Shown here: piece by piece, positions 3,979 to 30,703 of the stretch | Numbering within the stretch: the stretch's first letter is position 1 | How the letters are laid out: every line of letters begins with the position of its first letter | Assembly: GCF_000026545.1 (NCBI RefSeq) | Contig: NC_011601.1 | Direction: 5' to 3' (one strand) | DNA from: Escherichia coli O127:H6 str. E2348/69 | GTDB taxonomy: Bacteria > Pseudomonadota > Gammaproteobacteria > Enterobacterales > Enterobacteriaceae | DNA: 64,000 bases | Translations under genes and position numbers: made by a program | Notes under the pieces: generated by a model | Told to the model about the DNA's origin: nothing | The model's input: only the letters and a program-made list of their open reading frames with translations | Databases searched by the model: none

Positions 3979-4374
3979 ATGACCACTATTACCAAAGAGC
4001 GACTGCTGACAATCAAGCAGTGGCGCGAAACATACGGACCGGGTAGCAACGTTGTACTGCCAGCAGAAGAAGCGGAAGAACTGGCACGAATTGCTCTGGC
4101 ATCGCTGGAAGTCGAGCCGATAGGTTTCCGTTGCAGGCGCAATGATAACCTTGGTGATTGGAGTTACGTATATCATCGAGAGCCAGATGATTTTGAGCGC
4201 AAACATTTAGTGATAGAGGGCATTTACGCCGCCCCTCCAGCGCAAGTAGTACCGAAAGAAAAACCAATGCCTAATCCTCTTAGCATGTACGCGGTTGATG
4301 CTGTTGCCGCTATTGCAGAGGTGAGAGGCTGGAACGCCTGCCGTGCCGCTATGCTTCAGGGGAAAGGAGACTGA
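3979..4374 (+). CDS. Hypothetical phage protein sharing an N-terminal module with the 4584..5216 gene
   Basis: 131 aa; MTTIT start and ELARIALASLEVEP block shared with the downstream paralogue. Confidence 0.5.
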   Translation: MTTITKERLLTIKQWRETYGPGSNVVLPAEEAEELARIALASLEVEPIGFRCRRNDNLGDWSYVYHREPDDFERKHLVIEGIYAAPPAQVVPKEKPMPNPLSMYAVDAVAAIAEVRGWNACRAAMLQGKGD

Positions 4375-4375
4375 T

Positions 4376-4573
4376 ATGGATAAAAACACCACTGCTTACT
4401 GGAATCTGTCACTTGATACCGAATGCCCAAAATGCGGTCACAATTTCGATCTGCTTTGTGACGCTGATTTCTGGGAGTTTTCTGGAGCTAAACAGGCATG
4501 TGAAGAAATAAAAGGTTACGAAACATGCTGTCCAGAATGTAACCATGAATTTAAAACAGATTTCGTGTATTGA
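4376..4573 (+). CDS. Small zinc-ribbon protein (CPKC ... CPEC)
   Basis: 65 aa; two CxxC pairs; AGGAGA RBS before ATG 4376. Confidence 0.45.
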   Translation: MDKNTTAYWNLSLDTECPKCGHNFDLLCDADFWEFSGAKQACEEIKGYETCCPECNHEFKTDFVY

Positions 4574-28052: not shown

Positions 28053-28973
28053 ATGTTTCCAAAATGCAAATTTTCCCGCGAGTTTCTGCATCCTCGCTAC
28101 TGGCTCACGTGGTTTGGGCTTGGTGTACTCTGGCTTTGGGTACAGCTTCCTTATCCTGTTCTCTGCTTTCTCGGCACGCGTATCGGCACAATGGCGCGAC
28201 CATTCCTGAAACGTCGTGAATCTATCGCCCGTAAAAACCTGGAACTTTGTTTCCCGCAGCATTCTGCGAAAGAGCGCGAGAAGATGATTGCCGAAAACTT
28301 TCGTTCACTCGGCATGGCGCTGGTAGAAACCGGCATGGCGTGGTTCTGGCCCGACAGTCGCGTACGTAAATGGTTTGATGTTGAAGGGCTGGATAACCTC
28401 AAACGCGCACAACTGCAAAATCGTGGCGTGATGGTTGTCGGCGTCCATTTTATGTCGCTGGAACTGGGCGGCCGCGTGATGGGACTGTGCCAACCAATGA
28501 TGGCTACCTATCGTCCACATAATAATCAGCTGATGGAATGGGTGCAGACCCGTGGGCGCATGCGCTCTAACAAAGCGATGATCGGCAGAAATAATCTGCG
28601 CGGCATTGTCGGTGCACTGAAGAAAGGTGAAGCGGTTTGGTTTGCTCCCGATCAGGATTATGGTCGTAAAGGCAGCTCCTTCGCGCCGTTCTTTGCGGTA
28701 GAAAATGTCGCCACAACCAATGGCACCTATGTCCTCTCCCGTCTCTCTGGCGCAGCCATGTTGACCGTAACGATGGTAAGAAAAGCGGATTACAGCGGAT
28801 ATCGTTTGTTCATCACCCCAGAAATGGAAGGCTACCCGGCAGATGAAAATCAAGCCGCTGCCTATATGAACAAGATTATCGAGAAAGAGATCATGCGCGC
28901 GCCGGAGCAGTACCTATGGATCCACCGTCGCTTTAAAACGCGCCCGGTGGGAGAATCGTCGCTATACATTTAA
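28053..28973 (+). CDS. lpxP: Lipid A palmitoleoyl-ACP acyltransferase (cold-induced LpxL paralogue)
   Basis: 306 aa from MFPKCKFSREFLHPRYW; HtrB/MsbB family. Confidence 0.88.
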   Translation: MFPKCKFSREFLHPRYWLTWFGLGVLWLWVQLPYPVLCFLGTRIGTMARPFLKRRESIARKNLELCFPQHSAKEREKMIAENFRSLGMALVETGMAWFWPDSRVRKWFDVEGLDNLKRAQLQNRGVMVVGVHFMSLELGGRVMGLCQPMMATYRPHNNQLMEWVQTRGRMRSNKAMIGRNNLRGIVGALKKGEAVWFAPDQDYGRKGSSFAPFFAVENVATTNGTYVLSRLSGAAMLTVTMVRKADYSGYRLFITPEMEGYPADENQAAAYMNKIIEKEIMRAPEQYLWIHRRFKTRPVGESSLYI

Positions 28974-29328
28974 CAAACTGCTCTTACTCTTTCCCTCCTC
29001 AAATCAGCCATAATAACCTCATGGTTTTTATGGCTTTTTTCTTAAGGTTTTTTCCTTCGCTGAATCTCTAATTATTACCGTCAGAAATTAAACTGTCGCC
29101 GATATGAGACACCTGTAAGTTACTAAAAGTAAATAAGAAAATGCCTCTTGTCTCGTTTCAGTTTTAGGCGTACATTAGCGCCGTCTCGAGCAGTTTAGCT
29201 CAGAATTCTGGGGTGATGCCCACGGTAAAATACAGGGCTTTTAAGGTCGTTTTGCCCGGTGTCAACTCACTGTATCAGGTGTAATGAAGTCATTCAGGCG
29301 TAACAGTAATTACGCGGAGAGATGTAAA

Positions 29329-29400
29329 GTGAAATATTTCTTTATGGGCATTTCTTTTATGGTCATCGTTTGGGCCGGTACTTTTGCCCTGATGATCTAA
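29329..29400 (+). CDS. ypdK: Very small membrane protein (23 aa)
   Basis: VKYFFMGISFMVIVWAGTFALMI with GTG start and GGAGAG RBS; not in the ORF track because of its size. Confidence 0.6.
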   Translation: MKYFFMGISFMVIVWAGTFALMI

Positions 29401-29420
29401 AAGCAAACTGTGCAATGAAA

Positions 29421-29444
29421 AACAGGAGCCATCAGGCTCCTGTT
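29421..29444. terminator. Bidirectional terminator between ypdK and yfdZ
   Basis: AACAGGAGCC-ATCA-GGCTCCTGTT hairpin followed by a T-run. Confidence 0.55.
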
Positions 29445-29464
29445 TGCATTTTTGAGGTCGGTGT

Positions 29465-30703
29465 TTATTCCGCGTTTTCGTGAATATGTTTGCTGCTGGC
29501 GGGTAGTAAACCATCGGCACGGAACATCGCTTTAATCCCACGAATCGCCTGACGAATACGGTCGCGGTTTTCAATCAGTGCAAAGCGCACATGCGTGTCG
29601 CCGTAGTCGCCAAAGCCAATCCCTGGAGAGACACAGACCTTCGCTTCGTTAAGCAATTTCTTGGCAAATTCCAGCGAGCCCATGGCAGCATACGGTTCCG
29701 GGATTTTCGCCCAGACATACATCGAAGCCTTCGGCATTTCGACCATCCAGCCCGCTTCATGCAGCCCTTTCACCAGCACATCGCGGCGGCGTTTGTACTG
29801 TTCGGCAATATCGCGCACGCACTGTTGATCGCCCTCCAGCGCCGCAATAGCCGCCACCTGCAACGGCGTAAAGGTGCCGTAATCGTGATAGCTTTTAATA
29901 CGTGCCAACGCGCTGACCAGCGTTTTGTTACCGACCATAAAGCCGATACGCCAGCCCGCCATGTTGTAGCTTTTCGACAGCGTAAAGAACTCGACCGCCA
30001 CGTCGCGTGCACCTGGCACCTGCATGATTGACGGCGCTTTCCAGCCATCGTAGACGATATCGGCATAGGCCAGGTCGTGGACCACCAGCACATCGTAGCG
30101 TTTAGCCAGCGCCACAACCTTCTCAAAGAATTCCAGTTCCACGCATTGCGCGGTTGGGTTTGACGGGAAGCCGAGGATCATCATCTTCGGTTTCGGATAA
30201 CTTTCACGAATGGCGCGCTCCAGTTCATTGAAGAAGTCGACACCTTCCACCAGCGGCACTGAGCGTACCTGCGCCCCGGCAATCACCGCGCCATAAATAT
30301 GAATGGGGTAACTTGGATTCGGCACCAGCACTGTGTCACCGTGATCCAGTGTCGCCAGCATCAGATGCGCCAGGCCCTCTTTCGAACCAATAGTGACGAT
30401 GGCTTCTGATTCCGGGTCGATTTCAACGTCGTAGCGATCCTGATACCAGCGGGAAATGGCGCGACGTAACCGCGGAATGCCGCGTGAAGTGGAGTAACCA
30501 TGCGTGTCCGGGCGCTGGGCCACCGTACATAATTTTTCGACGATATGCGGCGGAGTCGCACCGTCCGGGTTACCCATACTGAAATCGATAATATCTTCGC
30601 CGCGCCGACGCGCAGCCATTTTCAGTTCAGCGGTAATGTTAAAAACGTAGGGCGGGAGACGATCAATACGCGTAAAGCGACGTTCAGGGCGAGTGTCAGC
30701 CAT
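29465..30703 (-). CDS. alaC: PLP-dependent aminotransferase (glutamate-pyruvate type)
   Basis: 412 aa class I/II aminotransferase; translation matches YfdZ/AlaC. Confidence 0.88.

Follow-up and report, generated by a model that had tools for sequence, protein, structure and literature searches.

The question raised by this locus was whether a stretch of only 23 codons and a stop, lying between lpxP and alaC on the chromosome of Escherichia coli O127:H6 str. E2348/69, encodes a protein, and if so, which protein it is and what might govern its synthesis. The window, as we use the word here, is the whole stretch of 64,000 nucleotides that was analyzed (contig NC_011601.1), and positions refer to it unless another genome is named. 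A first-pass annotation made from the letters alone had placed the small membrane protein gene ypdK at this spot.

Both the name and the coordinates held up. RefSeq lists at 29329-29400, plus strand, a coding sequence for WP_010723117.1, "membrane protein YpdK", matching exactly at both ends, and a K-12-lineage genome carries the identical protein accession. In MG1655, ypdK is b4680 and lies at 2,496,921-2,496,992 between lpxP and alaC, the gene order being that of the window. A genome search recovered E2348/69 at 100% identity over an 801-nt stretch around ypdK, and 5422 of the 5426 complete E. coli genomes contained this stretch at an identity of at least 95%. The unit of about 320 nt that runs from promoter to terminator was likewise found in 5422 of the 5426, at a median of one place per genome; at 99% identity or higher, the 321-nt unit was present in 3465 E. 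coli genomes, and 25 of 25 sampled rows were annotated as ypdK. The NCBIfam equivalog model NF033437 gave YpdK 57.5 bits against a cutoff of 30, with residues 1 to 23 falling on profile positions 1 to 23. A large protein collection contained the exact sequence under the names "membrane protein YpdK" and "Uncharacterized membrane protein YpdK", and a search of Pfam found no family for the peptide. The feature is almost certainly ypdK, the known chromosomal gene that is b4680 in K-12. It agrees with K-12 ypdK in every respect, having an identical protein, a place between lpxP and alaC, a GTG start, and a length of 23 codons; the gene in the window is ypdK itself in another E. coli strain and not a relative of it, and the finding is already known.

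The first-pass annotation had also said that the gene is missed by open reading frame (ORF) tracks, which is true of ORF lists filtered by length and untrue of the RefSeq annotation, where ypdK is present. Its further remark that such genes are easily overlooked in annotation was overstated here, given a dedicated NCBI model and the listing of ypdK in 45 of 45 sampled E. coli records. As a discovery, then, ypdK matters little, having stood for years in the K-12 gene list and being annotated routinely. A passage of a tiling-array study (PMC3009722) includes ypdK in the set of 18 small membrane proteins that Hemm et al. reported in 2008, and two other papers name the gene as a landmark for an stx-phage insertion site (PMC6667211) or as a feature in a machine-learning model. 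What may be new is only the conserved promoter and leader of the gene. The features discussed below are collected in Table 1.

Table 1. Features of the ypdK locus, in window coordinates
Feature	Position	Strand	Description and basis
lpxP, upstream neighbor	28053..28973	+	RefSeq
Putative -35 element, TTGTCT	29148..29153	+	17-nt spacing to TACATT; conservation and published transcript start
Putative -10 element, TACATT, followed by G+C-rich AGCGCC	29171..29176	+	Conservation and published transcript start
Helix P1, hairpin at predicted mRNA 5' end	29184..29204	+	Minimum-free-energy fold of the E. coli sequence
Palindrome CAGAATTCTG, bridging P1 and P2	29201..29210	+	Central A and T invariant, adjoining columns nearly so (39 Enterobacteriaceae)
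Helix P2, long hairpin with variable tip	29210..29268	+	Basal 9 pairs predicted by RNAalifold
Helix P4, GCGTAA-cagtaa-TTACGC, directly 5' of the Shine-Dalgarno sequence	29298..29315	+	RNAalifold
Shine-Dalgarno sequence, GGAGAG	29316..29321	+	7-nt spacer ATGTAAA to GTG
ypdK coding sequence	29329..29400	+	GTG start 29329-29331, 23 codons, TAA stop 29398-29400; RefSeq, NF033437, pN/pS
Predicted bidirectional intrinsic terminator, ypdK (+) and alaC (-)	29420..29453	both	11-bp stem, 4-nt loop, A and T runs
alaC (alanine transaminase), convergent neighbor	29465..30703	-	RefSeq; anchor for the 80 loci compared

Read directly, base for base, the frame consists of the GTG and 22 further codons, with the translation fM/V-KYFFMGISFMVIVWAGTFALMI, so that the 23-codon, GTG-initiated frame of the first-pass annotation was correct, and the GGAGAG ribosome-binding site that it had described was present 7 nt from the GTG. 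By itself such a frame is no more than chance would give, for the surrounding 3-kb stretch contains 49 ORFs of at least 20 amino acids. The ypdK frame stands above chance because of the RefSeq coordinates, the NF033437 score, and conservation in 75 species. The last of these comes from a set of 80 loci, one per species, anchored on the neighboring alaC, of which 79 were testable; the remaining locus was left out as untestable, its contig stopping at the terminator. A YpdK-like ORF convergent to alaC was found at the equivalent place in 75 of the 79 testable species, drawn from the Enterobacteriaceae, the Erwiniaceae, and Serratia. The carriers include Escherichia, Citrobacter, Salmonella, Enterobacter, Kluyvera, Kosakonia, Buttiauxella, Cedecea, Pantoea, Erwinia, Mixta, and Serratia. 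The gene was absent from the other four testable alaC loci, those of Erwinia endophytica, a Symbiopectobacterium, Lonsdalea, and a record labeled Pseudomonas. The divergent forms from Pantoea, Serratia, and Buttiauxella scored 43.7 to 55.4 bits against NF033437 and thus pass its cutoff, so the breadth of the family is already captured by that model.

Across these species the sequence varied in the manner of a coding region. The start codon was GTG in 77 of 77 sequences, the stop varied among TAA, TAG, and TGA, and the length was 23 or 24 codons. Mean entropy at codon positions 1, 2, and 3 was 0.58, 0.19, and 1.13, respectively. Pooled pN/pS was 0.28 in the ypdK frame; the two remaining sense frames gave 1.15 and 2.0, and the antisense frames 1.67, 0.45, and 2.29. 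None of the 69 distinct ypdK sequences contained an internal stop codon. The GTG was invariant across all 69, and so was the second codon, AAA, save for two sequences with AGA. Synonymous sites of ypdK differ by 61% on average, and therefore this invariance does not come from lack of time; it suggests that the rate of translation initiation itself is under selection. At the Shine-Dalgarno position, GCGGAG was invariant in 39 Enterobacteriaceae, and a GGAG or GAGG core was found in nearly all 75 species. Taken together, the substitution patterns indicate that ypdK is a real protein-coding gene under purifying selection, initiated at GTG 29329 with a GGAG Shine-Dalgarno sequence before it. As a minor point, an out-of-frame ATG-TAA start-stop pair occupies 29323-29328 in E. 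coli, between the Shine-Dalgarno sequence and the GTG. Most other Enterobacteriaceae keep this ATG, with sense codons after it; it lies only 3 nt from the GGAG, probably too close for use, and the pN/pS of its frame is above 1.

Downstream of the gene, the first-pass annotation had described a strong bidirectional hairpin terminator, a fair description of what is there. The hairpin, AAACAGGAGCC-ATCA-GGCTCCTGTTT, occupies 29420-29445, 20 nt past the ypdK stop and within the 64-nt gap that separates this stop from that of alaC at 29465. The terminator scan gave it a stem of 11 pairs, 6 of them G-C, followed by GCATTTTTGA on the plus strand. After the hairpin comes GCATTTTT, the T run being five T at 29449-29453, and the five A at 29418-29422 before the hairpin read as CCTGTTTTTCATT on the minus strand. 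Folding gave -23.5 kcal/mol (z = -4.22) for the plus strand and -21.0 kcal/mol (z = -4.16) for the minus strand, and none of 200 shuffles did as well. The scan called the plus-strand site and no minus-strand site, the latter going unlisted because the scan's stem extension takes up three T's. Essentially every species has an equivalent hairpin in the gap between ypdK and alaC. In the Enterobacteriaceae A and T runs are found on its two sides, and its stems, such as CAGGAGCC, CAGGCGCC, AGCGCC, and GGGAGCC, have changed in both arms. These observations support the assignment of the hairpin as a terminator that would end both ypdK and the convergent alaC.

On the upstream side, a promoter-like element about 150 nt before ypdK is kept from Escherichia to Pantoea and Serratia. 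In the Enterobacteriaceae it reads CTTGT(C/A/T), 17 to 18 nt, TACATT, and then AGCGCC; in the Erwiniaceae the corresponding pair reads TTTATT ... TA(A/G)ATTAGCGC. A TA(C/A/G)ATTAG motif was found, mostly 120 to 165 nt from the GTG, at all loci with enough upstream sequence except one truncated locus (L027). A consensus promoter scan did not call TTGTCT-17-TACATT, because only 8 of its 12 positions match the consensus, and the putative promoter rests therefore on its conservation and on a published transcript start. The supplement of the tiling-array study (PMC3009722) gives a plus-strand transcript at 2,494,795-2,494,997 in old K-12 coordinates, in which ypdK lies at 2,494,943-2,495,014, so that the transcript begins 148 nt upstream of the GTG. 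This start corresponds to about position 29181 of the window, five to eight bases past TACATT, and coincides with the conserved promoter. The same study lists the ypdK transcript as up about two-fold after UV (log2, +1.06; PMC3009722). A search of 29100-29330 for a LexA box with up to one mismatch found none.

Between lpxP and this promoter lies a terminator-like hairpin, AGCCATAA...TTATGGCT, at about 29006-29035 and followed by TTTTTTCTT, about 30 to 70 nt past the lpxP stop; folding of the region 29006-29043 gave -18.4 kcal/mol (z = -4.97). An A- and U-rich stem is the probable reason why it went unlisted by the simple terminator scan. The evidence supports, without proving it, the reading of ypdK as an independent transcription unit of about 270 nt that would be transcribed from a conserved sigma-70-type promoter and cut off from lpxP by the lpxP terminator. 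A second, proximal promoter was considered and rejected as a general feature: a TATAAT or TATACT about 55 nt upstream of ypdK occurs in many Enterobacter-like species, E. coli has a degenerate version of it, and in Citrobacter youngae-like sequences it has been deleted. The sole promoter-like site that the scan called in the region, GCGACA-17-AATAAT at 29099-29071 on the minus strand, faces the 3' end of lpxP and probably matches by chance.

With the start at this promoter, the leader of ypdK runs from about 29183 to 29328, some 146 nt, about twice the length of the ORF. An alignment of the leaders from 39 Enterobacteriaceae consisted of conserved blocks and variable stretches. Among the conserved blocks that remain unpaired are CAGAATTCTG and TTCATT; the former is a palindrome, reads CTCAGAATTCTGAG in many species, and could form a small hairpin of its own as an alternative to P1 and P2, or could serve as a protein-binding site. 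For P1, a hairpin with a different stem sequence was predicted at the equivalent place in most species, with a median folding z of -1.34, and pairing holds for 76% of cells on a MAFFT alignment in which the loops are misaligned. In P2, 94.5% of cells pair and four pairs have changed on both sides, an example being AU to UG or UA in 21 sequences. The tip of P2 is 33 nt shorter in E. coli SCPM-O-B-8794, the species representative (L003; its 4360-4487 against 29183-29343 of the window), with the basal pairs kept, and two Pseudocitrobacter sequences have a similarly shortened tip. In P4, 91.9% of cells pair and four of the six pairs show compensatory changes (GCGTAC/GTACGC, GCATAC/GTATGC, and GCACAC/GTGTGC). 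Counting the base of P2 and P4 as predicted by RNAalifold, 8 of 15 pairs carry compensatory changes among the 39 Enterobacteriaceae. The leaders of the Erwiniaceae are arranged differently and contain what looks like a long-range CGATCC/GGGATCG pairing.

Over P1, P2, and P4 together, 87.9% of cells pair, compared with 31 to 45% when the partners are slid. Cells that changed on both sides numbered 74, against 34 in shuffles, and none of 500 shuffles reached 74. A more conservative count that is robust to phylogeny gave 12 leader pairs with change on both sides against 9.2 expected, a value reached by 17 of 500 shuffles. Folding of single sequences gave modest values, with z = -1.67 for the E. 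coli leader and medians of about -1.3 for P1 and P4, compared with +0.4 for a control segment. The fold predicted for E. coli pairs the Shine-Dalgarno region with codons 3 to 6; this helix showed no covariation, and one of its pairs is broken in 26 of the 39 sequences. Rfam 15, searched with 28900-29500, returned nothing at the gathering threshold, the best score being 23.5 bits against 65.6, for an unrelated plastid element. From the pairing pattern, the ypdK leader is probably structured and possibly regulatory.

Four other readings of the locus were weighed against that of a 23-codon gene starting at GTG 29329. The true product might be a protein of 38 residues that begins at ATG 29284 (MKSFRRNSNYAERCKV-KYFF...), with the GTG serving as an internal valine codon. 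The mechanical ORF list does merge ypdK into a single ATG-initiated ORF of 38 amino acids at 29284-29400, and two further E. coli sequences (L002 and L003) also leave the extension open. However, most other genera have an in-frame stop one or two codons before the GTG, so that only E. coli and a few further genera could make the 38-residue form; NF033437 aligns to its residues 17 to 38 only; the ATG has just a GGTG two bases upstream, too close for a Shine-Dalgarno sequence; and the invariant GCGGAG is spaced for the GTG. We regard the longer product as very unlikely. Still less probable, to the point where we give it almost no weight, is a chance ORF whose conservation would be owed not to a peptide but to signals in the RNA or DNA, for example those of a small RNA or of the terminator region of alaC. 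ORFs of 20 to 40 codons are indeed abundant by chance, as the count for the surrounding 3 kb makes plain, and the transcript around this one has conserved RNA hairpins, but the variation is concentrated at third codon positions, the low pN/pS is confined among the sense frames to that of ypdK, eight residues are invariant, and the frame, start, hydrophobicity, and length of 23 to 24 codons are kept in 75 species despite the synonymous divergence.

The RNA itself offers a reading that is compatible with the coding function of ypdK, namely, that the transcript of about 270 nt is mainly or additionally a regulatory RNA, either with a dual function, as in SgrS/SgrT and AzuCR, or with a leader that acts as a sensor gating translation. 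The length of the leader relative to the ORF, the conserved promoter, the conserved single-stranded blocks, and the helices with compensatory changes, whose pairing and both-side changes exceed those of slid and shuffled controls, speak for it, as does the lack of any Rfam family at the gathering score. Yet folding energies are only modestly better than those of shuffled sequences, the phylogeny-robust count is weak, the helix predicted to sequester the Shine-Dalgarno sequence does not covary, the Erwiniaceae leaders are laid out differently, and no target or ligand is known. Like SgrS/SgrT and AzuCR, ypdK has a short transcript of which the small ORF is a minority, a conserved RNA structure, and an intrinsic terminator; it differs from them in having no known base-pairing target, Hfq dependence, or regulatory phenotype, and the structural evidence is moderate. 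We consider a regulatory RNA here rather doubtful, and we offer only as a tentative suggestion, with the balance against it, that the leader (29183-29328) would be an undescribed conserved cis-regulatory RNA that, together with the GTG, sets or switches the synthesis of YpdK, or that the whole transcript would double as a base-pairing RNA. Very improbable, in turn, is a type I toxin-like peptide (compare Ibs, Ldr, TisB, and ShoB) kept nearly silent by a long leader and a weak start. YpdK is very short and hydrophobic, as this would require, and has a GTG start behind a long, structured 5' leader. However, a patchy, multicopy, and strain-variable distribution is typical of type I toxin loci, whereas ypdK is single copy and syntenic across three bacterial families. 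No antisense promoter was found over the transcript, the sole minus-strand site lying upstream and pointing away, and the purifying selection acting on eight particular residues points to a specific interaction.

The reading that we prefer, a 23-codon gene with its start at the GTG, leaves the question of what so small a protein might do. YpdK has 23 residues and a GRAVY of 1.73, with K2 as its sole charged residue; residues 3 to 23 have a mean Kyte-Doolittle value of 1.99. It is thus one of the proteins below 50 residues whose single hydrophobic segment is of sufficient length to cross a membrane. In 2008, Hemm et al. reportedly detected the epitope-tagged YpdK protein. M1, Y3, M6, G7, S9, G17, T18, and F19 are invariant, and K2, W15, L21, and M22 are nearly so. 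The helical moment of conservation was 0.112, compared with 0.072 in shuffles (P = 0.15), so that a single conserved face was not significant. A search of the PDB by sequence and by profile found no YpdK-like chain in solved structures, barring a 10-residue coincidence with an E value of 0.55.

AcrZ, MgrB, MgtS, PmrR, and CydX are E. coli proteins of fewer than 50 residues that bind larger membrane proteins. By analogy with other small E. coli proteins and from its own sequence, YpdK would insert in the inner membrane as one transmembrane helix, with the Lys-2 end probably on the cytoplasmic side, and might use its conserved small and aromatic residues to pack against a larger membrane protein. 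That YpdK acts by binding such a protein is about an even call, and we go no further than that because the analysis identifies no partner. With AcrZ, MgrB, MgtS, PmrR, CydX, and KdpF, YpdK shares a length below 50 residues, one hydrophobic helix, a chromosomal location, and conservation in enterobacteria. It has no sequence similarity to any of them and, at 23 residues, is shorter than all. CydX and KdpF are encoded in the operons of their complexes, whereas YpdK has no known partner and none is encoded adjacent to it or cotranscribed with it. Across the 75 species, the gene neighborhood gave no partner candidate or functional clue beyond the linkage to alaC. The gene is nonetheless a well-behaved example of how 23 codons can be recognized from sequence, with an invariant start, three-base periodicity, and conserved synteny, and if the promoter and leader do regulate it, they would offer a route to the conditions under which YpdK is produced and from there to its role.

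The constant company of ypdK consists of alaC on one side and about 160 to 200 nt of upstream sequence on the other. The linkage to alaC may be explained by the little room for rearrangement in the 64-nt gap. A functional tie to lpxP was rejected, since just some 20 of the 75 species have lpxP next to ypdK and the upstream neighbors vary widely, also within the Enterobacteriaceae. In Pantoea, Erwinia, and Mixta (L056-L082), the upstream gene encodes a conserved protein of about 342 residues with an N-terminal membrane anchor; this gene is co-oriented with ypdK and ends about 200 nt before it. The N-terminal motif of the protein, RTNDAWVNADYT, is reminiscent of membrane fusion proteins of the HlyD/EmrA type, to which the protein may perhaps be compared. 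In a Shiga toxin-producing E. coli (STEC) O26:H11 strain, a 102.6-kb stx2a prophage is reported to lie in the "mlaA-ypdK intergenic region" (PMC6667211), and the ypdK region can therefore act as a phage integration site in some strains.
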